Assembly (NCBI GenBank): GCA_963823665.1
Contig: CAWGMQ010000006.1
Coordinates: 1,376,001-1,440,000 of the forward strand
Length of the DNA: 64,000 nucleotides
Reading direction: 5' to 3'
From: an uncultured Planctomycetota bacterium
Lineage (GTDB): Bacteria; Planctomycetota; Planctomycetia; Isosphaerales; Isosphaeraceae
Below the pieces are notes generated by a model, which worked only from the letters and a program-made list of their open reading frames with translations, was not told where the DNA came from and searched no databases. Below are positions 7,497 to 60,068 of this stretch, piece by piece (position 1 is the first letter of the stretch; every line of letters starts with the position of its first letter). A program made the translations under genes and the position numbers.

Positions 7497-7676
7497 GGCA
7501 ATCGACTCCCGGTCTCCGGCTCACAGAAAACGTGGTGGTCCGGTAGGCCTGCGGTGTCCTGGAGCAGCCGACTCTCGGGCATGCCTGATCGGATAACTGG
7601 GATTATACGTTGGCTCCCGGACCGACTTCACGTATTAGACCCCCAACTTTCGGAAGGGGATAAGGTGTCAAAGGGG

Positions 7677-7858
7677 AAAAGCTGTCAGGAACCCAATTTG
7701 CCCGAAGGGGAAAAGAAGGGGCAAAGGTGGGAAGGCGCAAAGGTGTCAGGAACCAATTTGTCCGAACTCGAAGCGCGAGCGGGAATAATTCAACGAACCA
7801 CGAAATGCGCGAAACCACACGGAAACGCGTTTGTGGTCAGGTCTCCTCGGGGTCGAAT
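7677..7858 (+). repeat. Dispersed AAGGTGTCAGGAACCAATTTG element, copy 1 (with partial head upstream)
   Basis: 7739-7858 aligns with 21576-21696 and 24244-24313. A degenerate extra head lies at 7677-7706. Confidence 0.85.
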
Positions 7859-8314
7859 GCCGCATGACATCCATTCTGATCAAATCTCGCTCGGTCTTCG
7901 CTCCACACTCGACGAGGTAAGACGCCTCCTCGCCGATCGTGCGCACCGCAACGCGCGCCGGAGGTTCTTCGTCGAGGGCGCGAGAATCGTCGTCCATGCC
8001 CTCGAGACCGGCTTCCACATCGATGCGCTCATCTACAGCGAGAAGCTGTTGATCGCTTGATCGGTGCCTCGCCAGACGGGTCGGCCGATCTCCACCGCTT
8101 CGCCTATCCTCGCCCGACAATCCTCGTCCTCGGCGAGGAGCGCGGAGGGCTCTCGCCGCTCCAGCGTGATCTCTGCTCGGACCTCGTTCGCATTCCGATG
8201 CTCGGTGTCGCTGACTCCCTGAATCTCGCCGTGGCCGGAAGCCTGCTGCTGTACGAGGTCTATCGGGCCAGGTCGGCTCACGACACGAGTGTTCGCCGAT
8301 CCGGCGCACGTTAG
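7857..8314 (+). pseudogene. TrmH/SpoU RNA methyltransferase, internally deleted copy 1
   Basis: N-terminal FFVEG.R.V..AL segment and C-terminal LVLGEERGGLS...VRIPMLGVADSLNLAVAGSLLLYE. The central SpoU motif is missing and the frame is broken at ~8060. Confidence 0.8.
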
Positions 8315-8337
8315 ATATCGCGAAGGATACCACCCCC

Positions 8338-8460
8338 GTGCCACGGGACTCGTTGGCTTGTCGAGTTCTGGACTCACATTTCGGACACTTGAACGGCTGG
8401 CGCGAACACTCGGAGAATTACGGGGTGTCTTTTCGGCAGTTGGCGAGCTTTCTGATGCAG
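8338..8460 (+). repeat. Partial duplicate of 12708-12830
   Basis: Near-identical sequence encoding PR.SLA.R.LDSHFGHL.GWRE.SEN.G.SFR.LASFLMQ in both places. Confidence 0.85.
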
Positions 8461-8702
8461 CAATCCGCCCGTCTGGGCCAAAGGGATAGTTGCCACACAT
8501 CCTTTCGTGGGGCGCAGCGTAGCACGAGCCCGGGCCCGACGGTGTGGATTTCCAATGCTTACGCAGCGCGCCCGCATTCAAGCGCCTCGGAAACGCGCGT
8601 GACGAGCACCGTAGCGCCAATTTTCGCAAGACACGTTCGCGGTCGTACCGCGGAGTAAGGATAATTGATTAAAGGCCCGCGATTGTTTGGACCGAAGCGC
8701 TT

Positions 8703-8874: not shown

Positions 8875-9141
8875 AGGCGTCGGGCTTTCCCGTGCTCTCG
8901 TCGCCGCCGCCGCCGGTCGCGCGCCTGTACAAAGCGGGGGCCGCCCATGTCAGCTCTGTGCCCTTCGCGGGAACGACGGACTGGATTCAGGAGCGATGCA
9001 ACGAGCGTCGCGGACTGCTATCGTTAGGACGATGGAGCGTGCCGGGACCTGGTTCAACAGTCCGTCACGCAGCGGGATCTCGTGCGATTGTCCCGGCAAT
9101 CCGGAGTGACTTTGCCATCGGGCCTATCAGAGGCAACCGCC

Positions 9142-10203
9142 ATGACCAAACCGGCCCCGACCTTGATCAGCCAGATCTCCAAGAAGCAACGGGACGTCGT
9201 CCAGAAGATATTTGAGCACGAGGGGGCGAACCTCTCTCGGGATGAGTTCTTCCACTGGACTGAGGCCCAACGGACAACCAACACCCGCCAGGCCAAACAA
9301 GCTGCTTGGTCGCACAACGGCCTGCGAATCCATTTGAAGAATCGGTTCGGATGCACGGACGAAGAGGCCGAGGCAATGCTGGTGCGGAGCACCTACGAAA
9401 CCGGCCTGGTGGCTCGCGGCGTCGCCCGGCGGATCCTGACCGGAAACCCGGAAGAACTGGAAGCCGCGCTCAGCCTCAGTGCTCGCCTCGATTGGGTAGG
9501 AACCTGCTACCCGGGTCGACCATGGGGCGCGTCCTACCCCGACGTCTGGACGGCACTTGGCGGGCTCGCGGCGGGGGACCTCGAGGTTGCCCAGGCCATA
9601 TTCCGGGTGCCGTGCCACGACCGCGGCCACAGGGCCACCGTGCTGATTTACGACGGCGTCGAGGCCATCGTCATGCAAGACCGACCGGCGCAGGCTCGGC
9701 TCGCCCCCAAAATCGCCGATTGCCGCGTGTCGGGTTGCTACCGAGCCATTCTCGAGACACTTCACGGCATGATCGAAGCCGACGCGCCCTCGGTCGCCAG
9801 GGGGCTAGAAAGGGTCCTGGCCACGTTCCGACGTCAGGAACCGCTCCATCATGAGACGATCATCTCCTTCCACGCTCATGCTCTTGCCGAGCTAGCCTAC
9901 TGGGTCTCACCGAAACTGCTTGCGGATTTCGATGTGGACCGGCCGCTTCCCTGGGATCGCGAGTACTTTCACTGGCTGCGCCGGACGCCACGGTCCACGG
10001 CATACCGAGACCTGTCTGCCTATTCCAGTCTGCTCAACCGCTGGGTTCATGATCTGAACGAGCCCGATTGGTGGCAGCTCCAGCGAGCATCGGCCGAAGA
10101 GGGGCAATCGACGTCCGATTCTCGTGGGATACCTGAGGAAGCTCGCAGTGAGGAATCCGAGGAAGTCCGCTTGCCTGCCGATTGCGCCCGGCTTGTCTCT
10201 TGA
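9142..10203 (+). CDS. Hypothetical protein, Imm49-like immunity candidate
   Basis: Intact ORF (track 9082-10203, ATG at 9142 after GAGG). Helical pattern ARGLERVLATFRR...ISFHAHALAELAY...LPWDREY is reminiscent of Imm49 proteins. Family call is tentative. Confidence 0.55.
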   Translation: MTKPAPTLISQISKKQRDVVQKIFEHEGANLSRDEFFHWTEAQRTTNTRQAKQAAWSHNGLRIHLKNRFGCTDEEAEAMLVRSTYETGLVARGVARRILTGNPEELEAALSLSARLDWVGTCYPGRPWGASYPDVWTALGGLAAGDLEVAQAIFRVPCHDRGHRATVLIYDGVEAIVMQDRPAQARLAPKIADCRVSGCYRAILETLHGMIEADAPSVARGLERVLATFRRQEPLHHETIISFHAHALAELAYWVSPKLLADFDVDRPLPWDREYFHWLRRTPRSTAYRDLSAYSSLLNRWVHDLNEPDWWQLQRASAEEGQSTSDSRGIPEEARSEESEEVRLPADCARLVS

Positions 10204-10277
10204 TCCGGCACGCAGTCCCAGCCAGGAGGAAGCACGCCGGGGACGCGGTCCACTTCCTCGACATCGGTCGGACCAGA

Positions 10278-11504
10278 ATGTCCGGTTATGGACCGGACAG
10301 CGCGGCAGAGATGGCTCCGTGGCTCAAGTGTTCCGGTTGGTTAGCCAAGCGGCCCTGGCTCTTTCTCGCCCGGTTCAAGGGCGAGAGCTGGATTCATTGC
10401 ATCGCATCGAAGCCGGGGCTTGTTTCGCTCGAAACGCTCGGGCGCAGCAAACACTTGCAGATCCTCAATGCCGGGTTCGATCTGGGCGAAAATCGGACAC
10501 ACGCTCAGTATCACAACAAGGGAAACATCGCGGCCGAGCTCACGGCTGCCGGAAAAGCGAAAGATCCGCTCGGGGTGCACTCGTTCAAGTCATCGGTCCG
10601 AGTCAAGGCGTTTCTCAAGCAATGCAAAACGGTTCGACACGCGGTCGACGGCTTCTTCGCGGCGCAAGACGCAGTGCTACGCGTGTTATCAGTCATCGAA
10701 GTGAACGGACTTCTTGAGCTGCGGGACGGCCTTGGGCGAGCTGTGAGCGCGGGCGAGCTAGCCGAGATCGGAATTCGATACTTTGTACCGATCACGGCCG
10801 AGGAGGATCCGGCTGGAGTGCGGCTGCAAGCGGCGATCAACACGGGCGACGTGGAGGCGGCTCGCCAGGCGATCGCGTCGGGCGCAAGCCTTGAGTTCAT
10901 TCCTGACGAATTCCGCAGCCCCTTGAGCATTGCCTTCGATGATACGCACCCAGGAGACTGGCGCGGCGTTGCGAAGCTGCTCATCGAGGCCGGTGCACCC
11001 ATCGATGGCTATGATTGGGAGGAGTCGCTGATCTGTTCTCCGATCAAAAACTTGGGGAAGTACGAAGACTCGGTCATCAAACGCATGGAGGCGATGCTCT
11101 CGCTGGGGGCATCCATCGATTCTCGGGGACGGTTGCCTGCTGTAGGGTTCACACCGTTACATCTCGCCGTCGAGAAGAATCAATTGCAGGTCGTGCAGTT
11201 CTTGATCGACGAGGGGGCCGACCTCGACGCACGCGATGTGCACGGTCGCACGCCGCTGGAACTGGCGGAAGATCAGGCAAGTGATGATCTGGAGAAAGAA
11301 GCTGCTGGTGGTGCGAATGACGAGGCTTCCTCTAGCGAGGGAGTCAGCCCTGAATTGACGCCACTCGAACTCTTCGTCAGCAAGTATTCGAGAACGCCAA
11401 GGGAGAGCGCGAGACGACGAATTCAAATCGTGAAGCTGCTGCGAGAAGTCTACGCGCACCGCCAGGCCGACTCACACGGCCCGCCGGCTAAAGTGAAGAG
11501 GTAA
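10278..11504 (+). CDS. Ankyrin-repeat protein
   Basis: GFTPLHLAVEKNQLQVVQFLIDEGADLDARDVHGRTPLELA plus degenerate repeats. Start uncertain (ATG at 10278). Confidence 0.85.
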   Translation: MSGYGPDSAAEMAPWLKCSGWLAKRPWLFLARFKGESWIHCIASKPGLVSLETLGRSKHLQILNAGFDLGENRTHAQYHNKGNIAAELTAAGKAKDPLGVHSFKSSVRVKAFLKQCKTVRHAVDGFFAAQDAVLRVLSVIEVNGLLELRDGLGRAVSAGELAEIGIRYFVPITAEEDPAGVRLQAAINTGDVEAARQAIASGASLEFIPDEFRSPLSIAFDDTHPGDWRGVAKLLIEAGAPIDGYDWEESLICSPIKNLGKYEDSVIKRMEAMLSLGASIDSRGRLPAVGFTPLHLAVEKNQLQVVQFLIDEGADLDARDVHGRTPLELAEDQASDDLEKEAAGGANDEASSSEGVSPELTPLELFVSKYSRTPRESARRRIQIVKLLREVYAHRQADSHGPPAKVKR

Positions 11505-11647
11505 GGACTCAAAGAAGCCACAACGAAGTCTACGCCATCATCTTGCGGGTTCTTGCTTCGCACACTCAGGTCGATACGAGATGTGAGGATGAGGGAAGCC
11601 AATGCCTCGCTCCTCTCAGTGATGAACCAATTGCGGTCTTCCGACAT
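11500..11647 (-). pseudogene. DUF4365-like fragment (second of a tandem pair)
   Basis: MSEDRNWFITERSEALASLILTSRIDLSVRSKNPQDDGVDFVV with a GGAGG RBS. The D.GVD motif is present, then the sequence is truncated against the ankyrin gene end. Confidence 0.55.
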
Positions 11648-11654
11648 TGCGTGC

Positions 11655-11790
11655 CTCCCAGACAGTCGAATGTCGGAAATTTGTCCCCGAGAAATCGCGG
11701 ACGAAAGTACGGCTCATTCCTTCCGCTCAGTTCTGTCACGATGATGACAAAAAATCGCCTGTCCGCGCTCGCCAATGCCGTCTTTGCTCA
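11655..11790 (-). pseudogene. DUF4365-like fragment (first of a tandem pair)
   Basis: LSKDGIGERGQAIF/VIIVTELSGRNEPYFRPRFLGDKFPTFD, with a frameshift in a T run. Truncated. Confidence 0.55.
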
Positions 11791-11866
11791 AGTTCGTACC
11801 CCCGCCAGCACGTTACCCAATCTTTGCACATTGATCATAACGTCCCGGGGCCAAAGAGCACATCCA

Positions 11867-11925
11867 GGGACTACAAGCCACCCACCTTCCGCGAGCGACG
11901 GGTGCATGGCTGCACCTCGAAAGGT
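11867..11925 (+). repeat. 59-bp hairpin-rich repeat, copy 2
   Basis: Matches 8816-8874. Confidence 0.8.
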
Positions 11926-12081
11926 GGTTTCTGGCCTCGCCCCCTCGCCACATCCCTCCCTGACACGTTATCCTTCAAAGGTGGTCCGGCCCTTCAAACC
12001 GAATCCGCTCGCGAACGGTCGCGCACGGGCGTCCCCCACTCCTTGTTCCACGTACCGAGCCCCAGGCTCCCCAAAAGGAGA

Positions 12082-12480
12082 ATGCCGCATGACATCCATT
12101 CTGATCAAATCTTGCTCGATCTTCGCTCCACACTCGACGAGGTAAGACGCCTCCTCGCCGATCGTGCGCACCGCGACGCGCGCCGGAGGTTCTTCGTCGA
12201 GGGCGCGAGAAACGTCGTCCATGCCCTCGAGACCGGCTTCCACATTGATGCGCTCATCTACAGCTTCGCCTATCCTCGCCCGACAATCCTCGTCCTGGGC
12301 GAGGAGCGCGGAGGGCTCTCGCCGCTCCAGCGTGATCTCTGCTCGGACCTCGTTCGCATTCCAATGCTCGGTGTCGCTGACTCCCTGAATCTCGCCGTGG
12401 CCGGAAGCCTGCTGCTGTACGAGGTCTATCGGGCCAGGTCGGCCCACGACACGAGTGTTCGCCGATCCGAAGTACGTTAG
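12082..12480 (+). pseudogene. TrmH/SpoU RNA methyltransferase, internally deleted copy 2 (in-frame, 132 aa)
   Basis: AAAAGGAG RBS. DALIYS is fused directly to FAYPRPTILVLGEE, so the central region is absent. Near-identical to 7857-8314. Confidence 0.8.
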
Positions 12481-12500
12481 ATATCGCAGTGGGGTTGAGC

Positions 12501-12959
12501 ATGGGAAACGCTGTGAAGATCAGGGCGCTGACCGCTCCACCGGCTCCATTCGCCACATTTGACCCGGGCGAATACATGAGCGGATTGGACTTCTACGAAA
12601 CAGACAGCGCAATCAACGACCAGGATCGTGACGGCCTGGCGCAGTTCACACACTTCATTGCCTTCATTGCCCTCCAGGCAAACTCGAGCAAGTGGGCTGC
12701 GTCAATCGTGCCGCGGGGCTCGTTGGCTTATCGAGCTCTGGATTCACATTTCGGACACTTGAGCGGCTGGCGCGAACTCTCGGAGAATCACGGGTTGTCT
12801 TTTCGGCATTTGGCGAGCTTCCTGATGCAGGACTACCCCCCGCGTGCGCCAAAAGGTAAGCCGCCGAACCAGCCGGTGCAGCAAACGGCGACCACAATGC
12901 TGCTTCCCGGTCTCTCTCACGGTCCTCCTGACCCATCGACTCGTTTGGAAGTTCGCTGA
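12501..12959 (+). CDS. Hypothetical protein (cassette-like; 3' end reads into a degenerate attC half)
   Basis: ATG at 12501. Part of it is duplicated at 8338-8460. Confidence 0.5.
   Translation: MGNAVKIRALTAPPAPFATFDPGEYMSGLDFYETDSAINDQDRDGLAQFTHFIAFIALQANSSKWAASIVPRGSLAYRALDSHFGHLSGWRELSENHGLSFRHLASFLMQDYPPRAPKGKPPNQPVQQTATTMLLPGLSHGPPDPSTRLEVR
12863..12919 (+). mobile_element. Truncated attC-like left half
   Basis: GCCGAAC-CAGCC-GGTGCAGC has the same R''-5nt-L'' geometry as 13434. No matching right arm. Confidence 0.55.
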
Positions 12960-13044
12960 TTGACCGGCCGACTTTGGCCCGTCATGATCAATGCGTTCGC
13001 GTGAGAGAATCACAAGTTCGGAGGCGCGAAGAAAAGGGGTTTGT

Positions 13045-13424
13045 ATGGAGCAGGTAGTTGGAATTGGCGGTGTATTCTTCAAAGCTCGCGATCCCAAGGC
13101 GCTCGCCGCCTGGTATCGCGAGCACTTGGGCGTGCCCGTCGAACCAGAGCAAACCTACGGGGCTTTCACGTCTGCCACGGCTGGAGAGCAGGCGGTTTGG
13201 TCTGCCTTCCCTGCCGACACCTCCTACTTTGGTTCGGGCACACAACCGTTCATGGTCAATTATCGCGTCCGGAACCTCGACGCCATGTTGGCCCAGCTCC
13301 GAGCTGCCGGGCGCAAGTAGACGACCGAGTCGAGGACTACGACTTTGGCCGGTTCGGCTGGGCGACCGACCCCGAGGGCAACCGATTCGAGCTATGGGAG
13401 CCGCGCCCACCCGGACAGGGGTAA
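13045..13424 (+). CDS. VOC/glyoxalase family protein (one frameshift near 13310)
   Basis: MEQVVGIGGVFFKARDPKALAAWYREHLG...FMVNYRVRNLDAML and GRFGWATDPEGNRFELWEP. Confidence 0.9.
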
Positions 13425-13433
13425 GCGCACCGC

Positions 13434-13531
13434 GCCGAACCAATGGCTGAAGCTGACCGGGGCCGCCATCCTGGTTTTTCGAGCTTCAAAGTTCTTGCAG
13501 GCGGCCCCGGCAGCTTAGCCGAGCGTTCCGG
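13434..13531 (+). mobile_element. Integron attC recombination site
   Basis: R'' GCCGAAC, 5-nt spacer, L'' GCTGAAGC, stem TG-A-CCGGGGCCGCC/GGCGGCCCCGG-CA, L' GCTTAGC, 5-nt spacer, R' GTTCCGG. Two extrahelical bases; 98 bp. Confidence 0.85.
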
Positions 13532-13591: not shown

Positions 13592-13939
13592 CTACGGGAT
13601 CTCCACGCCTCGGGGCGCCGTGGTAAGGTGCTTGCGGCCGGGCTCGAGGGCGGCGACGAAGACCGAAAGCGCGGCCTTCGAATCGCCACCTCCGCAGGAG
13701 AAAATATCGAGAGCGATATATCGGTGCTCGGGGTAAGTGTGGAACGCGATGTGAGACTCCGAGAGGAGGAGGTAGCCCGTGAGGCCACCCCCTTCGAAGC
13801 GGTGCAGCACCGGAGGGCCGATCGGCTTCATCCCACCCCGACGCGCCGCTAGGTCGAGACAATCGGCCAGCAGCCCGCCATCGACCAGACGGTCGGAGGC
13901 GACGTCGTAAAGGTCGGCAAGCAAGTGTTGACCGATCAT
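13592..13939 (-). CDS. speD: S-adenosylmethionine decarboxylase proenzyme (short pyruvoyl-dependent class)
   Basis: G.HLLADLY, HRFEGGGLTG, LLSESHIAFHTYPE (E|S self-cleavage site) and DIFSCG. GAGGAAAGGA RBS. Confidence 0.93.
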   Translation of the reverse strand: MIGQHLLADLYDVASDRLVDGGLLADCLDLAARRGGMKPIGPPVLHRFEGGGLTGYLLLSESHIAFHTYPEHRYIALDIFSCGGGDSKAALSVFVAALEPGRKHLTTAPRGVEIP

Positions 13940-14022
13940 CGACGATTCCGTCCTTTCCTCTTCCGGTCAGGAAATGCTCCAGGCAACCATCAGGCCGGCG
14001 GCAACGAATCTCGTGTGCAGCA

Positions 14023-15081
14023 TCACGGAGCGAGCCGACTGGTGGGTCCCTCCTCGACTGCCAGGTGCTGCAGGAAGGGAAGCATCGCATTGGCGATCCG
14101 GTCGTAGCTGTACAGGTCGTGTGCACCGGCGTAGACCCGGTTCGCGCCTCCAAATCGCCGCTTGAACTGCGAGAGCCGGCGGTACCTGTGGTCGGCCCGG
14201 TCGCCATGGGCGTCGATCCCATAAAGGTCGTACGTGGCGCAGCCGCGATCGATCGCCGAGGCCATGATGGCGGACTGAAGGGCGGAGGGCGCCATCACTT
14301 CGCGGTGTTCCCGGCGGCTGCCGCCGTAAAGGTACGTGGCGCGGGGGCCGAAGAAGACCGCGATGGCAGCGGCCAGGGTCTCGCCCCGGTACGTCGCGAA
14401 GAAGGCCGCGGCCATCCGGGCGGGGAATAGGATTGCCGCCAGGTCCATCAGGTAGCAAAGCGGCTCCGCGGCGAACCCCTGACGAGCAGCCGTCTCGACG
14501 AGCAGCGGATGGAACCGCGCGGCCGAGGCCGGGTCGGTCGTCACCTCGATTTCGACCCCGTGCCGCCTGGCGAGCCCGACATTGTACCTGCCTTTTGACG
14601 TCATCCGGATGAGGACGCCGGCCATCCCACCCGACAGGTCCACTTCGTTCGTCTCGAACGGGTCGAAATCGACGGGTGCGCGGACGAACCCACGCAGATA
14701 AGGCGGCAGTGGAGGAGCGAGACGGGGCTCGATCCGCCAGAGGATGCTGTCCGTCCGCCGACGCAGCCGGCACGCCTCGCGCCGGATCGCGGCGAAGAGT
14801 ACGGCGGCACGCTCCGGGTCATGCCAGGGCACGAGCGGACCTCCGGGCGTGACCAGGATGCCCGGCCCGTCGAGCGAGCGGGCGGCCTGGAAGATCGCCC
14901 CGCCCTCGATCCGGCCGTCGCGAAACCAGAGCCGCGGATAGACCTCGACCCCCTGGCGCGCCTGGAGCTCGGCCCAGGTCAGCGATTGCATGAACCCGCA
15001 TGCGGGGTTCTCACGCACCGCCCTTTCCCAGGCGTCACGGTACTCGTCGCTGAACTTGGTGCATTGGAGCGGGCCGGACAT
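14023..15081 (-). CDS. FemABX-family (double GNAT) aminoacyl-tRNA-dependent transferase-like protein
   Basis: FMQSLTWAEL, MTSKGRYNVGLARRHGVEI, ATYLYGGS, APSALQ, YDLYGI and FKRRFGG motifs. Confidence 0.85.
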   Translation of the reverse strand: MSGPLQCTKFSDEYRDAWERAVRENPACGFMQSLTWAELQARQGVEVYPRLWFRDGRIEGGAIFQAARSLDGPGILVTPGGPLVPWHDPERAAVLFAAIRREACRLRRRTDSILWRIEPRLAPPLPPYLRGFVRAPVDFDPFETNEVDLSGGMAGVLIRMTSKGRYNVGLARRHGVEIEVTTDPASAARFHPLLVETAARQGFAAEPLCYLMDLAAILFPARMAAAFFATYRGETLAAAIAVFFGPRATYLYGGSRREHREVMAPSALQSAIMASAIDRGCATYDLYGIDAHGDRADHRYRRLSQFKRRFGGANRVYAGAHDLYSYDRIANAMLPFLQHLAVEEGPTSRLAP

Positions 15082-15093
15082 GGGACATCACCC

Positions 15094-16569
15094 CTACCGC
15101 GGCGTGCGGTAGTAGTAGTAGCGGCCGTTGTAGTAGCAATAGTAGTAGTGGTAATACGGATCGGAATACCAGTAGTAGTAGGGAGTGGTCACGGTCCCCG
15201 CACCTCCGGACACGTACCCGCCGCGCTGCTGCATCGGATACGCGCCACCTCCGAAATAGGTTCTACTTCCTGGGGGACTTCCGTGCCCCCCCTTGGCGTA
15301 GGCGGCCGTGGGCATGGCGGTCTGCGCGAGGACGAGTACGAGCATCAATACGCTAAAGAATCGCCAACCCCAGGTCGTGAAGTTGGCCACGGGATCCTCA
15401 CCTCGCGACAGGAACTCGCGGAACCGCTTCAGTTCGGCCACGAGCCGCCCGGGCAAGGCGGCGGCGCGGCGGAGCAAAGCCGAGATCAACCGCCCTAGAT
15501 CGAGCGTGCTTGCGGCCTGAACCAGGTGGCCCGCCCACTCCATGACCAGCTCGCGGGTGACGATCCGGTGACCCAGCGGCACGCACATCAAGAGATCGTC
15601 GATCCCGGTACCGGGCTGGCGATCGAGCCACCCTTTCAGCTTCAGGCTCGGGACGGTCGCGGTGGCCGGCTCAGGCGGCGGGAACGGGTCGTCGAACCCG
15701 AGGAAGCAAACCGTCTCCTCGGCTTCTCCCGGCGCGATCGTGGTCGCATCGAGCAGATACTCATAAAGCGTCCGCCCCGCGTCCGATGCGGGTCGGATCG
15801 TCGTCCGCTGGTCGGCCTGTTGCCGGGGGAATTCGAAGCAGTCCACGAGCCCGGGCCCGTCAAGAGTTCGCACGCCCTCTGGAATGGGTACCGAACGCAT
15901 CTCAACAGGTGTGATGGCTCGATCCGAGGCGAGGAAGAACCCCCAGACGCCATACCCCAGCTCGGCGAAGCTGGGGACGCGCGACCGGCCCGGGAGCGCG
16001 GCGAGGCCGGCCGAGCGGAGGCTCTGGTAGACGCACCAGTACGCCGCGGGGGTCTGGTCCGGCGAGAGCCCATTGAGGGCAAGGATGCCCCCGGGCTCCA
16101 GGTGCGCGCGCAGCTTCTGGAACCAGTCGCGTGTGAACAGACCGCAGTCGGCCAGGGTGCTGGGACAGGTCAGGTCCGAGAAGATCGCGTGGAACGAGCC
16201 GGCCTTCGCGAGCGCCTCCCGGACGTCGGCGACCTCCACGGCGACCCGGTTATCGGCGAGGCTCGACCCGTTCCAGGGGGCGAGCTCGGTGCCCGCAAGG
16301 GCCAGGACCTCCGGGTTGTAGTCGATCACGCGGACCGACGCGACTCCCTCATGCCGAAGCAGCTCGCGGACGAGCAGGCCGTCGCCGCCGCCGAGCACGA
16401 GCAGGTTAAGCGGCCCCTCGAACCTCGCCCGCGCGGCGAGCAGGGCGGGATTGGCGAGCCGCTCGTGGTAAATCGCTTCGTCGTCGGTGTCGAATTGAAG
16501 GTCGCCGCCAAGGTAAAGCCGCAGCCCTCCAGCGCGTCGCTCCAGGACGAGCGTTATGTGCAAGAACAT
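15094..16569 (-). CDS. Polyamine aminopropyltransferase-like enzyme with C-terminal helical, TM and Gly/Tyr-rich extension
   Basis: LYLGGDLQF, DEAIYHE, LVLGGGDGL, IFSDLTCP, LEPGG and PSF...WGF motifs. GGAGGAG RBS. About 230 extra C-terminal residues. Confidence 0.88.
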   Translation of the reverse strand: MFLHITLVLERRAGGLRLYLGGDLQFDTDDEAIYHERLANPALLAARARFEGPLNLLVLGGGDGLLVRELLRHEGVASVRVIDYNPEVLALAGTELAPWNGSSLADNRVAVEVADVREALAKAGSFHAIFSDLTCPSTLADCGLFTRDWFQKLRAHLEPGGILALNGLSPDQTPAAYWCVYQSLRSAGLAALPGRSRVPSFAELGYGVWGFFLASDRAITPVEMRSVPIPEGVRTLDGPGLVDCFEFPRQQADQRTTIRPASDAGRTLYEYLLDATTIAPGEAEETVCFLGFDDPFPPPEPATATVPSLKLKGWLDRQPGTGIDDLLMCVPLGHRIVTRELVMEWAGHLVQAASTLDLGRLISALLRRAAALPGRLVAELKRFREFLSRGEDPVANFTTWGWRFFSVLMLVLVLAQTAMPTAAYAKGGHGSPPGSRTYFGGGAYPMQQRGGYVSGGAGTVTTPYYYWYSDPYYHYYYCYYNGRYYYYRTPR

Positions 16570-16999
16570 ACATCTCCTCCTTCCGCGTTAGTTCCGATCA
16601 AACCCAATCCAATTACTGTGCGTTGCGAAAACAACTGATGTGGCCTCCTCGGCCTCCTCGGCGGAGACGAAGAGCGGTCCCCGATCGAGGATGGCCGTCG
16701 CGCAGGAGGCAGAGCCGGCGTGTCCCCCGGAACAGCACAACCCAACCCCCGGGGGTGGAGTAACGAAGGCGGGTCGAGGAGCAAGAGGAAGAACAGGATC
16801 ATCGGAGGGACGCCGGGTTCGCCAGGCTGATCACCCTCCCTACAACCAGTTCGTCCCGCGTCGGTGTTTTGTGCGAGTGTTTCGCGAGATTTTCATTCTC
16901 AAGGCTTAAGTTCCGGGGACACCAGACGTAATTCTCACAGCCAGCATGAATGAGCTTCGCCGAGGTGGCGGCGGCCGCGCTGGCATACGACACGAACGG

Positions 17000-29207: not shown

Positions 29208-32200
29208 TTATCCCTTGGCGTCTCCTGCCTTTTTCCGCACTGTCGCCACATCGGCCCACAGTTTCCGCCACGACTCCTGCTGACCGGCCGACAGCTTCTT
29301 GAGCGCGGCCGCTTCACGCACACAGGCCAAGTTGACTTCGCGCTGCCAGTGCAGGAGCGTGGCCCGCACAGCCTGGCGATCCTCCAACGTGCCGCTTTCC
29401 ACTCGCTTCTTCCACTGCTCCAGGTCGGCCCGCAGCCAGGCGAGCGCCTGCTCGCGCAGCCGGCGTTGCTCCTGGTCGTCGAGCTTGTCGGCGTCGATCG
29501 CGGGACCCGACGAGGCGATCGTGGCGCACCAGGCGGCGTTAAAACGATGACCGGCTTTCAGCTCCTCAGCCAGTTTCGGGTCGGCGGTGAAGGCGTCGGC
29601 ATACAGCCGGGCGGCGGCGACGTACCGGCGCGTCAGCCGGCATACTTCCGCGAGGCCGAGCCGCTCGCCGTTGTCGGTGGCCGTGGCTTTCCCTGCGAGC
29701 ACGTCGGCGAGCTTTGCCTCCAACCGCGCCAGCCGTTCGGGGTTTGCGACCCGTTGGGCCGACACGAACTTCGGGTCAAGTTCGATGGCCTTCCTGTATT
29801 CGCCGATGGCCTCGTCCAACTGGTTCTTGGCCAGCAGTGCGTGGCCGAGGTAGAAGTGGTACGGTGCGAGCTTGGGGTCGAGCTCGATGGCCCTCCTGAA
29901 TTCGCCGATGGCCTCGTCCAAGTGGTACTTGGACCACAGTACGTGGCCGAGGAAGTAGTGTGCCATTCCGAGCTTGGGTTCGAGCTCGACGGCCTTCTTG
30001 AATTCGCCGATGGCCTCGTCCCAGTGGTTCTTGGACCACAGTGCCTCGCCGAGGTGAAAGTGGGCACATGCTTCCATGGGATCGAGTTCGATGGCCTTGC
30101 GGTGTAGGGCGATGGCCTCGTCCAACTGGTTCTTGGCGTGCATGCAAATGCCGAGCAACATGTAGAAAATTCCCTGCTTGGGGTCGAGCTCGATGGACTT
30201 CTTGCATTCACGGATGGCCTCTTCCAACTGGCCCTTGCCCAACAGCGAGTGGCCGAGGTTGTGGTGGGCATGTGCGAACTTGGGGTCGACTTCGATGGCC
30301 TTCCTGTATTCGGCGATGGCCTCGTCCAACTGGCCCTTGACTTGCAATTCATAGCCGAGGTTATTGTGGGCAGTTACGAACTTGGGGTCGACTTCGATGG
30401 CCTTCCTGTATTCGGCGATGGCCTCGTCCGGCTGTTTCTTGGCCACCAGCGCGTGGCCGAGGCTGTCGTGGGCGGTCGCGAGCTTGGGATCGAGCTCGAT
30501 GGCCTTCTTGTATTCGGCGATAGCCTCGTCCAACTGGCCCTTGGCTCGCAGTGCGAGGCCGAGGCTGACGTAGGCAGCGCCGGTAGCCGGACGTAGCGCC
30601 AAGGCTGTTCGACAACAGCCGATTGCTTCTTCCACGATCACCGGGGATCGATCCTTGCCATCATAGAGGACACGTCCCAGAAGAAAATGGATCCAAAAAT
30701 CCGTCACGTGACGGCCGCGCGCCCAGCGCAGCAAAGCCAAGGCTTCGTCTACGTCGCCTTGGAGAAAAAGATGCGAGGACAGCAGCACGAGACTGGAAGG
30801 TGGCAGGGACAGCCGCCGTGCTTGGCCGCTCAAGGCCCGTAGTGCCGCGGCGTCCCTGGCGAGGGCCGCGACCCGAAACTGCTGCCGCCACGGATCGTCA
30901 TCCGCCGCCGTCGCGATCGCCTCCACCATCTTCGCCAGCTCCAATTCCTGCACCATCAGGGCACTGGCGTGCCAATTGTCAAGTGCCACGATCAGGGCCT
31001 CGCGGATGGCGGGTTGTTCCGCGCGGATGCGCCGCGCCAGCTCTTCGGTTCGTCCCGGCGTCATCTCCAAACCGTAGGCAGCGCACGCCGCGGCATACTT
31101 CGTGACCGCGCCGGCATCGTCGAAATGGGTTTCGATCCAGCTCGTCGATCGCGACATGCGAGCGTCATCCAGCCAGCTCGATCGCGTCATGCGAGCGTCA
31201 TCCAGGTCGCGCAGCAGCTTTGCCGTCCGCTGGGCTTGCGACCGTTGCTGTCCGGTCTGTCGCCGTTCGTCCTGCACACGCTCTTGTAGATGGGCGTCGG
31301 CCGTTCCGGTCCTCAAGGCGGTCTCCGCCTGGTCCAGCGTCGCTTCGGCTTGGCGCCAAAGCGCCAGGGCAGCGTCCGCCTCCTGGCTCGTCGCGCTCGG
31401 CGCCTCGGCAGCCTGCTTTTTCAACTGCTCCGTCTTGATCAGTACCGCGTTCACGGTTTGTTCCGTCTCGGCCCTGCGACCGGACAGCTCGCTGCGACGC
31501 GCCGCCTGGTCCAGGAGCGCCCAGGTCGCAACGGTGCCGGCCAGCAGCAACACCAGGGCCGCCGCGGCCGTGACCCGCAGCCCCGCCTTGTGCCGGCGCG
31601 TGAACTTGCCGAAGCGATACCAGGCCGACGGCCGGCAGGCCGCAACTGGCTCGTCGTTCAAGTAGCGATCGACGTCCCGAGCCAGCTCGTTGGCCGTCTG
31701 GTAGCGGCGCGTGCGATCCTTCTCGAGCGCCTTCATGACGATCCAGTCCAGCTCGCCACGCAACAGCCGGCAGAGCCGTTTGGGATCGCTCTGCCGCTCG
31801 GCCGAGACCGTCACCGCTGAGGGGCCCAGCGTGCTCAGACGGGTGCTCGGACTGGGCGGATCCTCTTCCCGGATGATACGCCGCATCTCGTCGTAGCCCG
31901 CCGTGCGCAGCCGCTCCTTGTCAAACGGCGTAACGCCCGCCAGCAGCTCGTACAGCAGCACGCCGAGCGAGTAGATGTCGCTGCGCGTGTCGATGTCCAG
32001 ACCGCTCAACTGGGCCTGCTCGGGACTCATGTACATCGGCGTGCCGACGATCTGCGCGAAGCCGGTAAAGAGCGTCTTCTCCGTGAGCTGCTGCCCGAGT
32101 GCCTTGGCGATGCCGAAGTCGATCACCTTCACGACCGGCAAGCCGTCGTGCAGCGTCACCATGACGTTCGAGGGTTTCAAGTCCCGGTGAATGATGCCCT

Positions 32201-32795
32201 TGTGGTGCGCGTGCTGCACGGCATGGCAGACGTGTCTGAAGAGCACCAGCCGCTCCTGGGTGGGCAGGCGGTTCTGATCGCAGTAGTCGGTGATCGGCAC
32301 ACCCTTGACCAACTCCATAACGAAGTGAGGACGGTTCGAACCAGTCTCACCGGCGTCGAGCACCCTGGCGATGTTGGGATGATCCATGAGTGCCAGGGCC
32401 TGGCGCTCGGCCTCGAAGCGGGCAATCACCTGCCGGGTGTCCATGCCCGGCTTGAGGATTTTCAGGGCCACCTTGCGGCGGACCGGCTGCTGCTGCTCGG
32501 CCATGAACACCAGGCCGAAGCCCCCTTCGCCAATCTGTTCCAGGAGCTTGTAGGGACCGATGATCGTGCCGGGGCATTCGGCAATCGGCGCTTCAACGGA
32601 AGGAACGTGGCCGACCGGGGACGATTCCAGGAAGCTTCTCTCCTCTTCGTAGATTCGCAGCAGTTCCAGGAGCCGGTGCATGGCCGCTGGATCGTGGCCG
32701 CAGGCCTCTTGAAGGTAGGCGGCGCGCTCTTCCGGCGCGGCGATGTGCCGGGCACGGTTGAAAATCTCTTTTTCCTCGAGAAGCTTGTGTCCCAT
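29208..32795 (-). CDS. Hanks-type Ser/Thr kinase with TM helix and TPR repeats (kinase A)
   Basis: IGEGGFGLV, VALK, HRDLKPSN, DFG and GTPMYMSPE. TM VTAAAALVLLLAGTVATWA; TPR units LDEAIAEYRKAIELDP. Confidence 0.97.
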   Translation of the reverse strand: MGHKLLEEKEIFNRARHIAAPEERAAYLQEACGHDPAAMHRLLELLRIYEEERSFLESSPVGHVPSVEAPIAECPGTIIGPYKLLEQIGEGGFGLVFMAEQQQPVRRKVALKILKPGMDTRQVIARFEAERQALALMDHPNIARVLDAGETGSNRPHFVMELVKGVPITDYCDQNRLPTQERLVLFRHVCHAVQHAHHKGIIHRDLKPSNVMVTLHDGLPVVKVIDFGIAKALGQQLTEKTLFTGFAQIVGTPMYMSPEQAQLSGLDIDTRSDIYSLGVLLYELLAGVTPFDKERLRTAGYDEMRRIIREEDPPSPSTRLSTLGPSAVTVSAERQSDPKRLCRLLRGELDWIVMKALEKDRTRRYQTANELARDVDRYLNDEPVAACRPSAWYRFGKFTRRHKAGLRVTAAAALVLLLAGTVATWALLDQAARRSELSGRRAETEQTVNAVLIKTEQLKKQAAEAPSATSQEADAALALWRQAEATLDQAETALRTGTADAHLQERVQDERRQTGQQRSQAQRTAKLLRDLDDARMTRSSWLDDARMSRSTSWIETHFDDAGAVTKYAAACAAYGLEMTPGRTEELARRIRAEQPAIREALIVALDNWHASALMVQELELAKMVEAIATAADDDPWRQQFRVAALARDAAALRALSGQARRLSLPPSSLVLLSSHLFLQGDVDEALALLRWARGRHVTDFWIHFLLGRVLYDGKDRSPVIVEEAIGCCRTALALRPATGAAYVSLGLALRAKGQLDEAIAEYKKAIELDPKLATAHDSLGHALVAKKQPDEAIAEYRKAIEVDPKFVTAHNNLGYELQVKGQLDEAIAEYRKAIEVDPKFAHAHHNLGHSLLGKGQLEEAIRECKKSIELDPKQGIFYMLLGICMHAKNQLDEAIALHRKAIELDPMEACAHFHLGEALWSKNHWDEAIGEFKKAVELEPKLGMAHYFLGHVLWSKYHLDEAIGEFRRAIELDPKLAPYHFYLGHALLAKNQLDEAIGEYRKAIELDPKFVSAQRVANPERLARLEAKLADVLAGKATATDNGERLGLAEVCRLTRRYVAAARLYADAFTADPKLAEELKAGHRFNAAWCATIASSGPAIDADKLDDQEQRRLREQALAWLRADLEQWKKRVESGTLEDRQAVRATLLHWQREVNLACVREAAALKKLSAGQQESWRKLWADVATVRKKAGDAKG

Positions 32796-45935: not shown

Positions 45936-48900
45936 CTATCCCTTGGCGTCTCCTGCTTTCTTCAGCAATGCCGCCACATCGGCCCAGAGCTTCCGCCATG
46001 CCTCCCGCTCAAGGGCCGCCAGCTTTTCGAGCGACGCCGGATCACGGACACTGGCCAACGCGAAGTCGCGCTGCCAGTGCTCAAGCGCGGCCCGCATGAC
46101 TTGGCGATCCGCTGGCTTGCCGGCTTCCAGTCGTTTGGCCCACTGGCCCAGCTCGGTCCGCAGCCAGGCCAAGGCCTGCTGGCGCAGCCGGCTTTGTTCC
46201 TTGCCGTCCAGTTTTTCGGCATCCGACCCTTGACCCGCCGCAGCCAGGGCGGCGTAACAGGCGGCGTGATAACAACGCCCGGTTTTCAAGTCATCCGCCA
46301 GTTTCGGGTCGGCTGTGAAAGCGTCGGCGTAGAGCCGGGCGCCGGCGACGTACCGGCGCGTGAGCTGGCACACTTCCAAAATGCCAAGGCGTTCGCCGTT
46401 GTCTGCCGGCGTGGCTTTCCCCGCGAGAGCGTCGACCAACTTCGCCTCCAACTGGACGAGCCGTTCGGCGTTGGCTACCCATTGGGCCGACGGGTAGCGC
46501 CAGTCCTGGCGCTTGCTGCCCAAGGCGTGCCCACGCTTCATGAAATCGAGAGAAGCCGATAACTGGCCCTGTGAGCGAAGAATACCGGCCAGCGCACAGT
46601 GCGCCTCGGCATACTCCGGTTGAAGATCGATGGCCTTGCGGAATTCGGTGATCGCCTCGTCCCACTGGTTCTTGGCCCAAAGTGCGTTCCCGAGGTTTTT
46701 GCGGGCTTCTGCGCACTTGGGGTCGAGCTCGATCGCCTTCCTGTATTCGGCGATCGCCTCGTCCAACTGGTTTTTGACGTGCAGGCAATTGCCGAGCATG
46801 CTGTAGGCCAATGCGAGCTTGGGGTCGAGCTCGATGGCCTTCTTGCATTCGCCGATGGCCTCTTCCAACTGGCCCTTGCCCAGCAGTGCGCGGGCGAGGT
46901 TGTGGTGGGCCGGCGCGAGCTTGGGATCGAGGTCGATAGCCTTCTTGTATTCCGCGATGGCCTCTTCCACCTGGTTCTTGCGGTAGAGAGCGGTGCCGAG
47001 GTTTTGGTGGGGCAGCGCAGCCCGGGATCGAGGTCGATGGCCTTCTTGTATTCGTCGATGGCCTCGTCGACCTGATTATTGCTGCTCAGAGCGGCGCCGA
47101 GTTCGTTGTGGGCCGGCGCGAGCCTGGGGTCGATGTCGATGGCCTTCTTGTATTCGGCGATAGCCTCCGCCACCTGGTTCCTGCTGCGCAGAGTGATGCC
47201 GAGGTTAAGGTGGGCCATCGCGTCCTTGGGATCGAGATCGATGGCCTTCTTGTATTCGGCGATAGCCTCCTCCACCTGGTTCTTGCGGCGCAGAGCGGTG
47301 CCGAGGTTGTGGTGGACCGGCGCGAGCTTGGGATCGAGGTCGATGGCCTTCTTGAATTCCGCGATGGCCCCCTCCACCTGGTTCTTGCGGAAGAGAGCGG
47401 TGCCGAGGTTGTGGTGGGCCAGCACGAGCGTGGGATCGAGGTCGATGGCCTTCTTGTATTCGGCGATAGCCTCCTCCATCTGGTTCTTGTCGCTCAAAGC
47501 GGCGCCGAGGTCGTTGTGGGGCGGCGCGAGCCTGGGATCGAGGTCGATGGCTTTCTTGAATTCGGCGATGGCCTCCTCCACCTGGTTCTTGCGGCGTAGC
47601 GCGGTGCCGAGGTTGCTGTGGGCCGGCGCGAACTTGGGATCGAGGTCGATGGCCTTGCGGTGTTCGGCGATGGCCTCCTCCAGGTGGTTCCTGGCCAGAA
47701 GAACGATGCCGAGGCTATCGTGGGCCTCCGCGTACCTGGGGTCGAGATCTATGGCCTTGCTGTATTCGGCGATGGCTTCGTCCCACTGCCTCTTGGCCGC
47801 CAGTGCGAGTCCGAGGTCGTTGTGGCCGTGCGCATACTTGGGGTCGAGGTCGATGGCCTTGCGAAGAGAGAGGATGGCCTCGTCCAACCGCTTGCGGCGG
47901 TACAGGACAACGCCGAGGTTATGGTGGGCAGCGACGGCAGCCGGATGCAGCGCCAGGGCTGTTCGGAAACAACCGATTGCTTCTTCCAGGATTGCGGGGG
48001 AATTATCCTCGCTCTTTATCAGGCAAGACCCCAGGTCAAAATGGATCCAAAAATCCGTAAGGTGGCGGCCGCGCGCCCAGCGGAGCAGGTCCACGGCTTC
48101 CTCGCGGTCTCCTTGCGAAAACAGTCTCCCGGCCAGCAGATTGAGACTGGACGATGGCAGGGACAGCCGCCGTGCTTGGCCGCTCAAGGCCCGCAGTGCC
48201 GTGGCGTCCTTGCCAGCGGCCGCGGCGCGAAACTGCCGCCGCCACGGATCGTCATCCGCCGTGGCCGCGATCACCCGCATCGGGTTGGGCGACTTCACTA
48301 TCATGCCCAGGTTGAGTTGCCACCAATCTTCAAGCGCCACGATCAGGGCCTCGCGGATGGCGGGTTGTTCAGCGCGGATGCGCCGCGCCAGCTCTTCGGT
48401 TCGACCGGACGTCACTTCCAGACCGTAGGCCGCGAACGCCGCGGCATATTTCGCGGGCGAGTCTGAAACGTCCAAATTGTTTCGGATCGACATCTGTCGC
48501 GCCATGCGGGCGTCATCCAGGCCGTGGAACAGGTTTGCCGTCCGCCGCGCCTGCGCCAATTGTTTTTCGATCTGTTGTTGTACGTCCAGCACCCGCTGAC
48601 GCAGACGCTCATCGGCCATTCCGGTCTTCAAGGCGGCCTCCGCCTGGGCCAGCGACGCTTCCGCCTGTCGCCAGAGTGCCAGGACGGCGTCCGCCTCCTG
48701 GCTCGTCGCGCTCGGCACTTCACCAGCCTGCTTGCGCCACTGGTCCGTCTGAACTAACGCCGCGTTCACGGTTTGTTCCGTTTCGGCCATGCGCGTTGAC
48801 AGCTCGGTGCGACGCGCTGCCCGGTCCAAAAGCGCCCAGGTGACGCCGCCGACTGCCAGGAGCAACACCAGGGCAGCCGCCGCGGCGATCTGTAGCCCCG

Positions 48901-50110
48901 CCTTGTGCCGCCGCGTGAACTTGCCGAAGCGATACCAGGCCGACGGCGGGCAGGCAGCCACCGGCTCGTCGTGCAAGTAGCGCTCGACGTCCCGAGCCAG
49001 CTCGTTGGCCGTCTGGTAGCGGCGCGTGCGGTCCTTGTCGAGCGCCTTCATCACGATCCAGTCGAGCTCGCCGCGCAAGAGCCGGCAGAGCCGCTTTGGA
49101 TCGCTCTGCCGCTCGGCCGAGACCGTCACCGCTGAGGGGCCCAGGCTGCTCAGACGGGTGCTCGGGGTGGGGGGATCCTCTTCCCGGATGATCCGCCGCA
49201 TCTCGTCGTAGCCCGCCGTGCGCAGCCGCTCCTTGTCAAACGGCGTAATCCCCGCGAGCAGCTCATACAGCAGCACGCCCAGCGAATAGATGTCGCTGCG
49301 CGTGTCGATGTCCAGACCGCTCAACTGGGCCTGCTCGGGACTCATGTACATCGGTGTGCCGACCATCTGCGCGAAGCCCGTGAAGAGCGTCTTGTCCGTG
49401 AGCTGCTGCCCCAGTGCCTTGGCGATGCCGAAGTCGATCACCTTGACGACCGGCACGCCGTCGTGCAGCGTCACCATGACGTTCGAGGGTTTTAAGTCCC
49501 GGTGAATGATGCCCTTGTGGTGCGCGTGCTGCACGGCATGGCAGACGTGTGTGAACAGCACCAACCGCTCTTGCGTGGTCAGGCGGTTCTGATCGCAGTA
49601 GTCGGTGATCGGCACGCCCTTGACCAGCTCCATGACGAAGTGAGGGCGGCCCGAGCCAGTCTCACCGGCTTCGAGCACCCTGGCAATGTTGGGATGGTCC
49701 ATGAGTGCCAGCGCCTGGCGCTCGGCCTCGAAGCGGGCGATCACTTGCCGGGTGTCCATGCCGGGCTTGAGGATCTTGAGGGCCACCTTCCGTCGGACCG
49801 GCTGGTGCTGCTCGGCCATGAACACCAGGCCAAAGCCCCCCTCGCCGATCTGTTCCAGGAGCTTGTAGGGACCGATGATCGCGCCGGGACATTCGGTGAT
49901 CGGCGCGTCAATTGTTGCAGTGTGGCCAACCGGGGACGATTCCAGGAAGCTTCTCTCCTCTTCGTAAACCCGTAGCAGCTCCCCGAGCCGGTGCATGGCC
50001 GCTGGATGATCGCCGCAGGCCTCTTGAAGGTAGGCGGCGCGCTCTTCCGGCGCGGCGATGAGGCGGGCACGGTTGAAGATCTCTTTTTCCTCGAAAAGCT
50101 CGGCTGCCAT
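45936..50110 (-). CDS. Ser/Thr kinase-TM-TPR protein (kinase B; frameshift near 47015)
   Basis: 46538-50110 plus 45936-46970. Kinase motifs intact and C-terminal domain homologous to kinase A. Confidence 0.93.
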
Positions 50111-60004: not shown

Positions 60005-60068
60005 GGTTCGTTCCCCTATCAATCAAGGCGGAATCCGAGCCTGGCTCCCCTAACGTTATGCGCAAAAA
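60005..60068 (-). promoter_or_regulatory. Conserved kinase upstream element between sigma and kinase C
   Basis: Third copy of the ~65-bp element. Confidence 0.6.

Follow-up and report, generated by a model that had tools for sequence, protein, structure and literature searches.

A conserved pair of aminopropyltransferase and FemABX-like ligase from DUF350/DUF4178-type operons, with a proposed aminoacyl-aminopropyl modification of the transferase's own lysine

A stretch of 64,000 nucleotides from an uncultured Planctomycetota bacterium (the window, to whose positions all coordinates refer) carries three genes at 13592..16569, all on the minus strand. They encode an aminopropyltransferase (APT) fusion protein (P0001, 491 aa, 15094..16569), a FemABX-like, putatively aminoacyl-tRNA-dependent transferase (P0002, here Fem; 352 aa, 14023..15081) and a class 1b SpeD homologue (P0003, 115 aa, 13592..13939). 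Together the APT and Fem make up a conserved module within the DUF350/DUF4178 family of operons. Judged from sequence, the likely role of the two enzymes is to attach a cationic aminoacyl-aminopropyl group to a lysine of the APT itself. If the proposal is correct, it would represent a new protein modification, in which an aminopropyl group on a protein lysine is coupled to tRNA-dependent aminoacylation, and would give insight into the function of widespread bacterial membrane operons that have no known substrate.

The linkage between the two genes is strict. Pattern scans of genomes and metagenomes gave at least 16 family loci, and at least 144 loci of the membrane-fused type that were used as controls. 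Altogether 54 family loci were examined, of which four end before the next gene and one is false. In all of the 49 that were counted, a FemABX-like frame lies directly after the APT (in one locus in the same reading frame), compared with one weak, non-adjacent Fem match among the 144 control loci listed. A Fem profile and a profile of the APT C-terminal region select the identical 13 genomes from a sample of 351 from the cyanobacterial phylum. This argues against the suggestion, made in the preliminary description as a possible refutation, that Fem acts independently.

Within the fetched stretches of the 49 loci, DUF350 is found in 31 and DUF4178 in 23. That description had treated SpeD, FemAB and Spermine_synth as a trio; the genes do co-occur across lineages, but SpeD is nearby in only 30 of the 49. 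Because DUF350, DUF4178 and SpeD are variably present, it is the APT and Fem pair that forms the core. The gene order [SpeD]-DUF4178-APT-Fem-DUF350 is seen in cyanobacteria, Geomonas, Elusimicrobiota and Methylomirabilota, and APT-Fem-DUF350-SpeD in the Herpetosiphon class; Armatimonadota, Melainabacteria and the clade of the window have APT-Fem, which SpeD accompanies in some cases and not in others. Since many loci are kin, they represent about eight independent lineages rather than 49. Fusions of APT to Fem were considered as Rosetta-stone evidence and set aside: the single frame in G030 is probably the product of a frameshift within the tail, and P0102 comes from one contig.

The APT family is rare, patchy and wide in distribution. 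Full-length relatives of P0001, at 32–41% identity, occur in cyanobacteria, Sericytochromatia, Elusimicrobia and Herpetosiphonaceae, and its C-terminal 268 residues alone retrieve 102 proteins from a library clustered at 50%. In counts that include the seeds, the C-terminal profile finds 14/351 genomes of the cyanobacterial phylum (one of them false), 5/201 of Armatimonadota, 2/151 of Elusimicrobiota, 1/101 of the Geomonas order, 8/151 of the Herpetosiphon class, 5/121 of Methylomirabilota and 9/121 of the window's own family.

The APT domain (about residues 6-270, 15760..16554) keeps Q25, Y34, H35, the GGGDG motif (containing D63) and the catalytic D132. It lacks the N-terminal ~30 residues of SpeE and the Asp that contacts the distal amine, which is replaced by C135. 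In the human enzyme Asp173 is catalytic and Asp176 contacts the far amine of putrescine (PMC13619349), while the acidic residue of GxG(D/E)G is described as a mark of the use of decarboxylated S-adenosylmethionine (dcSAM) (PMC10349129). D63, D132 and Y34 are present in 34/34 family rows, and with its dcSAM-binding acid, catalytic Asp and catalytic Tyr the protein can be assigned by sequence to the aminopropyltransferase superfamily. The preliminary description had reported GGGDG, and DLTCP where E. coli SpeE has DCTDP; these lie at residues 60-64 and 132-136, and our alignment to E. coli SpeE agrees. Its emphasis on a change from Asp to Cys is half right, in that loss of the second Asp is clade-wide (Asp in 0/43 motifs) but the Cys is variable (C/A/F/Y/V/H/S/L/W/T). 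A special catalytic role for Cys135 was considered and ruled out, as the position is C or A even among kin.

In a quick IQ-TREE analysis of 83 catalytic domains, the 34 rows of the family group together (support 97). Their sister clade holds 35 membrane-fused rows (support 96; joint clade 98), and E. coli SpeE lies outside both. In this comparison with SpeE and with the enzymes of DUF350 clusters, which had been suggested earlier, the APT is sister to the SpdSyn-like clade of DUF350/DUF4178 operons, apart from SpeE, and by lineage it belongs to that operon family. Equivalents of E. coli Q54, Y63, H64, D88 and D158 are kept in both clades (33-35 rows each), with Phe for Y226. The D161 equivalent is present in 35/35 rows of the sister clade and missing from the family, and the Q33 equivalent is likewise kept in the sister clade alone. 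The family sequence is GGGDGL, with L65 invariant in 47/47, and falls outside the patterns hhhhGGGD(G/C)G and hhhhGGGEGA given for spermine and thermospermine synthases (PMC11107197).

These results bear on whether the APT simply makes a polyamine (spermidine, spermine or thermospermine), with Fem either independent or acylating the free polyamine. The best matches of the APT in the PDB are polyamine synthases, the adjacent SpeD is the only one in the genome, and there is no classical SpeE of ~300 aa among the genome's five PF01564 matches, all of which would suit such a role. The score against the SpeE equivalog TIGR00417 is 80 (cut-off 249.55), however, and all other NCBIfam SpeE cut-offs are likewise far off. 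With the APT branching apart from SpeE, the distal-amine Asp lost clade-wide, a GGGDGL motif of neither spermine nor thermospermine synthase type and the strict linkage to Fem, we agree with the earlier view that ordinary spermidine synthesis is unlikely, and consider polyamine synthesis in general very improbable. The four further PF01564 frames of the genome (780-899 aa; G000 C4, C7 (two) and C3; L164, L166-L168) form long branches outside both clades, and the single SpeD may be shared with them.

The remainder of P0001 is a C-terminal module of ~220 residues, absent from the earlier account, which holds the family's most conserved non-catalytic motif. It begins with a family-specific helical linker (about residues 300-395, 15385..15672). 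This is followed by an Arg, which elsewhere in the family may be Lys, a 12-residue hydrophobic core and the motif N/Q-x3-P-x3-[YF]-[AG]-K-G (together 15289..15381), in which the codon of Lys426 is at 15292-15294. The variable Gly/Ser-rich tail (15097..15288) ends here in a Tyr-rich hairpin of three strands, while in other lineages the short forms have a second helix of weak hydrophobicity in its place and the long forms have 270-450 aa. The predicted structure (pTM 0.77) has a SpeE-like fold, a linker that is helical, and a further helix spanning 397-418. The linker has no Pfam match, and neither it nor the C-terminal domain of the long forms yielded a usable match in searches of the ESM Atlas.

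Motif columns were read in 231 of the 235 sequences that have the C-terminal domain, the other four being truncated or short of the helix. The counts are 231 for Pro420, 228 for Tyr/Phe424, 230 for Ala/Gly/Ser425, 229 for Lys426 and 218 for Gly427, with the possibility of a slight bias since the profile used to collect the sequences includes the Lys motif. Lys426 is present in 88/88 representatives at below 60% identity, and both exceptions among the 231 look frameshifted. After Lys426 the tail is unconserved. The basic n-region, core of ~12 residues, Pro near -6 and small residues at -3/-1 match in sequence the pattern of a Sec signal peptide with a signal peptidase I site; the helix is signal-peptide-like, and in several short forms basic residues follow the second helix. 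At a signal-peptidase site the +1 residue, here the Lys, is not normally fixed. The region around Lys426 is predicted to be an acceptor, a site of the signal-peptidase type, or both. In the long forms (P0097, P0068, P0059 and others) a domain of 270-450 aa runs from ~470 to the end, without a Pfam or Atlas match; the longest APT forms lack an adjacent DUF4178.

Fem is a double-GNAT homologue of FemX and FemA (profile E 8e-39 to 2e-16), which are its nearest solved relatives, although its score against the FemX NCBIfam model (52.9, cut-off 500) is far short. In a FastTree analysis the 44 linked Fem proteins group together (support 99), with subgroups similar to those seen for the APT; this is no proof of co-evolution, because kin share both genes. 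The catalytic Lys305 of FemX (PMC12945691) has an equivalent, K307 in P0002, that is invariant among linked Fem proteins. The double GNAT homology and this lysine identify P0002 as a probable FemABX aminoacyl-tRNA transferase.

Differences appear where FemX binds its precursor, through Lys36, Arg211 and Tyr215 (PMC8280954). At the Arg211 position all 43 linked Fem proteins that cover it have Glu, compared with Lys or Arg in 25/26 of the nearest unlinked homologues. The Tyr215 position is Tyr in 6/43 linked proteins (mostly it is Phe or His) and in 25/26 unlinked ones. P0002 has Q40, E206 and Y210 at the three positions, and so does not have the full set of residues of a peptidoglycan-type Fem or MurM. 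The Glu suggests that the acceptor of Fem has shifted from anionic to cationic, and fits a cationic acceptor in the pocket. The peptidoglycan-type Lys, Arg and Tyr are kept in a sister clade of FemABX proteins from soil bacteria (P0240-P0335); a search for this unlinked clade in 201 genomes of one phylum gave one weak match.

The same residues bear on whether the pair might modify a peptidoglycan precursor. The kinship with FemX and FemA points that way, as do a Lys at the Lys36 position in 40/44 linked proteins, the kept Tyr256 position and the fact that the genome has no PF02388 match besides Fem. Nevertheless, the invariant Glu disfavours the cell-wall precursor that had been listed among possible acceptors, Tyr215 is rarely kept, and the Lys36 position is Gln in the clade of the window. 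Furthermore, no cell-wall gene recurs in two or more of 15 clustered neighbourhoods, and the distribution is patchy. We therefore regard a peptidoglycan acceptor as very improbable.

SpeD has the processing triad S62, H67 and C82 and scores 91.3 against TIGR03330 (cut-off 75.65), as expected of class 1b; it is the only one of the three proteins to pass an NCBIfam equivalog cut-off. Pro70 is kept, while the Pro after the His-x-Phe strand, present in other SpeD proteins of such clusters, is missing. SpeD homologues include arginine and ornithine decarboxylases, and a Pro separates AdoMetDC from SpeDA (PMC10407285). Because homologues can decarboxylate arginine or ornithine, SpeD is a likely rather than a certain source of dcSAM. 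In two family operons from cyanobacteria the gene immediately upstream of speD encodes a DUF1611 protein (L004:4468-5520, L085:4303-5355).

On balance we consider it probable, by a modest degree, that Lys426 is the acceptor, whatever the order of the steps. The specific version that we favour, tentatively, is that the APT aminopropylates its own Lys426 and Fem then aminoacylates the site. SpeD would first make dcSAM. The APT domain, held near the hydrophobic helix by the linker, would move the aminopropyl group to the ε-amine of Lys426, either in cis or between subunits, and Fem would add an amino acid from aminoacyl-tRNA to the new primary amine, with the reverse order possible. Because dcSAM and aminoacyl-tRNA are cytoplasmic, both modifications would precede export. 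The helix would then enter the membrane and place the modified Lys-Gly tail outside, where signal peptidase I may free a new N-terminus; DUF350 and DUF4178, where present, would help in handling or export. The loss of the distal-amine Asp fits an internal Lys, since this has no second amine. A further step, which is possible but doubtful, is to see P0001 as a self-modifying membrane precursor: a Lys in its own cargo would be aminopropylated and capped by Fem, and signal peptidase would free a peptide or protein that is displayed at the surface and has an N-terminus resembling a polyamine.

Lys426 could also be the acceptor in a different order or state, with Fem acylating the Lys first and the APT aminopropylating the added residue, or with one enzyme alone acting on the Lys. 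The target of Fem would then be either the ε-amine, as for FemX, or the α-amine of an N-terminal Lys exposed by cleavage; we rate this group of readings as distinctly unlikely. Leu/Phe-transferase, which acylates the α-amine of an N-terminal residue, is a precedent for action on an exposed Lys. FemX natively acylates the ε-amine of a peptide Lys (NCBIfam model name; PMC12945691), and a bulky acceptor with a single amine would be in keeping with the loss of both the distal Asp and the N-terminal segment of SpeE. Set against this, the acidic residue at the FemX 211 position slightly favours an acceptor that is cationic, having already been aminopropylated.

Several observations weigh against the self-modification of Lys426. 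The predicted final position of the Lys is extracytoplasmic, away from dcSAM and aminoacyl-tRNA. In the structural model pLDDT is below 50 at 417-462, and the Lys is not placed in the active site. The fit to the -3/-1 rule means that processing alone could explain the conservation of the motif. In the sister enzymes, for which a terminal Lys has been proposed as the target, every row retains the second Asp. The rule used to find their separate Lys-ended peptides (an ORF ending [G/H/A]K with a rich tail, 0.6-1.7 kb upstream) was fixed after seeing the data, and by it such an ORF is present in 90/112 sister loci, compared with 2/112 on the opposite strand. The genome of the window (91.9% complete) has no match to DUF350 or DUF4178; DUF350 is also absent from 4/5 other tested genomes with DUF350-less operons, and lies elsewhere in the genome in 3/5 kin. 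Finally, a frame is broken or merged somewhere in the trio in 6/8 kin copies, through decay or long-read error.

The question of topology does not arise if the product of the APT and Fem is a small molecule with an aminoacyl-aminopropyl group, or if their target is a membrane lipid or monoamine. Both enzymes would work in the cytoplasm, with the membrane serving as a tether for the APT. The Lys motif would then be an anchor or a signal-peptidase site only, exporting a tail or domain that has some other function, and its small residues at -3/-1 with Pro at -6 fit this. The 270-450 aa past the Lys in long forms are like a secreted domain, and FemX-like enzymes acylate small amines in natural-product pathways (PMC12945691). 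What this leaves unexplained is the presence of Lys (229/231) and Gly (218/231) at the would-be +1 and +2 positions, and the absence of a separate Lys-ended peptide in exactly this clade. We consider it rather unlikely, though the most probable of the alternatives. The modification of Lys426 can be tested directly in this family, because the N-terminal enzyme is soluble, with no seven-transmembrane (7TM) domain, and the candidate acceptor is on the same chain.

The locus itself is largely as first described. Three intact, co-oriented ORFs were re-found, with gaps of 12 and 83 nt, matching PF01564 (Spermine_synth), PF02388/PF13480 (FemAB/Acetyltransf_6) and PF02675 (AdoMet_dc) respectively. Clear ribosome binding sites had been claimed for all; the first and third genes have a Shine-Dalgarno-like run ahead of them, and the second has a weaker one. 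The decayed surroundings are real, with broken SpoU-methylase, glyoxalase and TPR/CHAT fragments in the flanks of the trio. The genome (16.5 Mb) holds one copy of each trio gene, with one match to PF02675. Codon differences from the kin genome G012, synonymous to non-synonymous, are 24:19 for the APT catalytic domain, 23:21 for Fem and 6:12 for SpeD, a sign of purifying selection on the APT catalytic domain and Fem. Contigs of relatives from four RNA libraries (two studies) span 13.5-16.8 kb and all three genes, which is not evidence of transcription. A tblastn search against plasmids gave just 8 matches, distant and partial.

Upstream of the trio, a non-coding stretch (16570..16907, minus strand) is conserved in three kin genomes and is likely a leader/promoter or the edge of an island; an Rfam scan of 11.5-18.5 kb matched no family. 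On the other side, a decayed SpoU/TrmH methylase fragment with a downstream ORF occurs in two copies (7554-8658 and 11647-12959), between which lie a 373-aa ORF and an ankyrin protein (9082-11504). A glyoxalase/VOC gene (12991-13450) has a one-base frameshift near 13308, where contigs of relatives from two RNA runs have an extra base. A short intergenic element, probably REP-like, is repeated at ~7690, ~21580 and ~24290, and the same translated motif is found in three ORFs. Further away, three Ser/Thr kinase-TPR proteins (29208-32795, 46538-50110 and 56039-60022) alternate with large surface proteins of beta-helix, PMP-repeat and MBG/Ig-repeat types.

We found no paper on the APT–FemABX pair in the open-access literature, and no FemABX partner in the accessible part of the description of the parent operon family (PMC11237479), whose supplements might list such neighbourhoods. 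That family consists of 7TM- or MFS-fused SpdSyn-like operons with DUF350 and DUF4178, which are widespread and tied to the phage-shock envelope-stress system; the substrate is unknown, and 'aminopropylation of other substrates' has been proposed (PMC11237479). The sister operons are of the PRK03612 type (DUF350 (YjfL), DUF4178, lipoprotein, AdoMetDC and flavin oxidase; Ravi et al. 2024, PMC11237479; Li et al. 2019, PMID 31467246), and have DUF350, DUF4178 and SpeD as neighbours in common with our family. Li et al. reportedly found no spermidine-synthase activity for the membrane fusions. The APT of the window lacks the N-terminal multi-transmembrane domain of the MFS/7TM-SpdSyn fusions, and scores 181.8 against PRK03612 (cut-off 472), with the match confined to 257-513 of the profile, its C-terminal half. 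The family differs further in having lost the second Asp, in always having a FemABX ligase, in a tandem DUF350 of ~285 aa, and in that no flavin oxidase or band-7 gene recurs in its clustered neighbourhoods. In a Nitrospinota sister operon the flavin oxidoreductase and SpeD share one reading frame (L061:4212-5600).

The family carries a linker-helix-Lys module at the C-terminus of the APT, where the sister operons have a separate Lys-ended peptide. An ORF on the + strand ending in Gly-Lys is present in 73/144 listed sister loci, compared with 8 on the other strand, and the tested GGK form of the peptide has no Pfam match. A second form, ending in His-Lys, makes up 26/90 and occurs in alphaproteobacterial, Bacteroidota and other loci (e.g. 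L059:5838-6077, L013, L039, L074). In family loci only 4/44 have such an ORF over a wider span of 8 kb, all Ala-Lys and chance-looking, so the family lacks the separate peptide.

Compared with the SpeE proteins of E. coli and T. thermophilus and with PA4774-type enzymes, the APT shares the fold, GGGDG and the catalytic Asp and Tyr; it differs from spermidine, spermine and thermospermine synthases in its fused membrane module and in the absence of Gln33, of the Asp for the distal amine and of ~30 residues at the N-terminus. Fem shares the double GNAT homology and catalytic Lys with FemABX enzymes (Weissella viridescens FemX, S. aureus FemX/FemA, MurM), but has Glu for Arg211, mostly Phe or His for Tyr215, and occurs with an APT rather than in cell-wall operons. 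A precedent for the logic is the fungal 7TM N-terminal histidine methyltransferase NHMT (PMC10349129), annotated as SpdS, which is membrane-attached and modifies the end of a secreted protein. This enzyme transfers a methyl group, and it has Ile where the APT family keeps the Asp of GxG(D/E)G in 34/34.

A further parallel is E. coli yjfIJKLMC/ygiBC (with a DUF1190 lipoprotein), likewise a DUF350 operon with a Gly-rich membrane-anchored partner and an amide-forming ligase tied to polyamines. There the DUF350 gene yjfL is followed by yjfM, whose product ends in Gly-Gly, and yjfC, annotated as a peptide-spermidine ligase; YjfM (L254:5388-6026) adjoins YjfC and is an obvious candidate for its physiological substrate. 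For YgiC, the paralogue of YjfC, the physiological substrate is described as unknown (PMC11762307, citing Pederick et al. 2023). The E. coli ligase is an ATP-grasp enzyme that uses free spermidine, in an operon without an aminopropyltransferase, whereas that of our family is a predicted tRNA-dependent GNAT. Should the doubtful idea of a self-modifying precursor prove true, the family would represent one of three interchangeable ways in which DUF350 operons put a spermidine-like end on a Gly-rich anchored peptide: Gly-Gly with a spermidine ligase, Gly-Gly-Lys with a membrane APT, and Lys-Gly with a fused APT and Fem.

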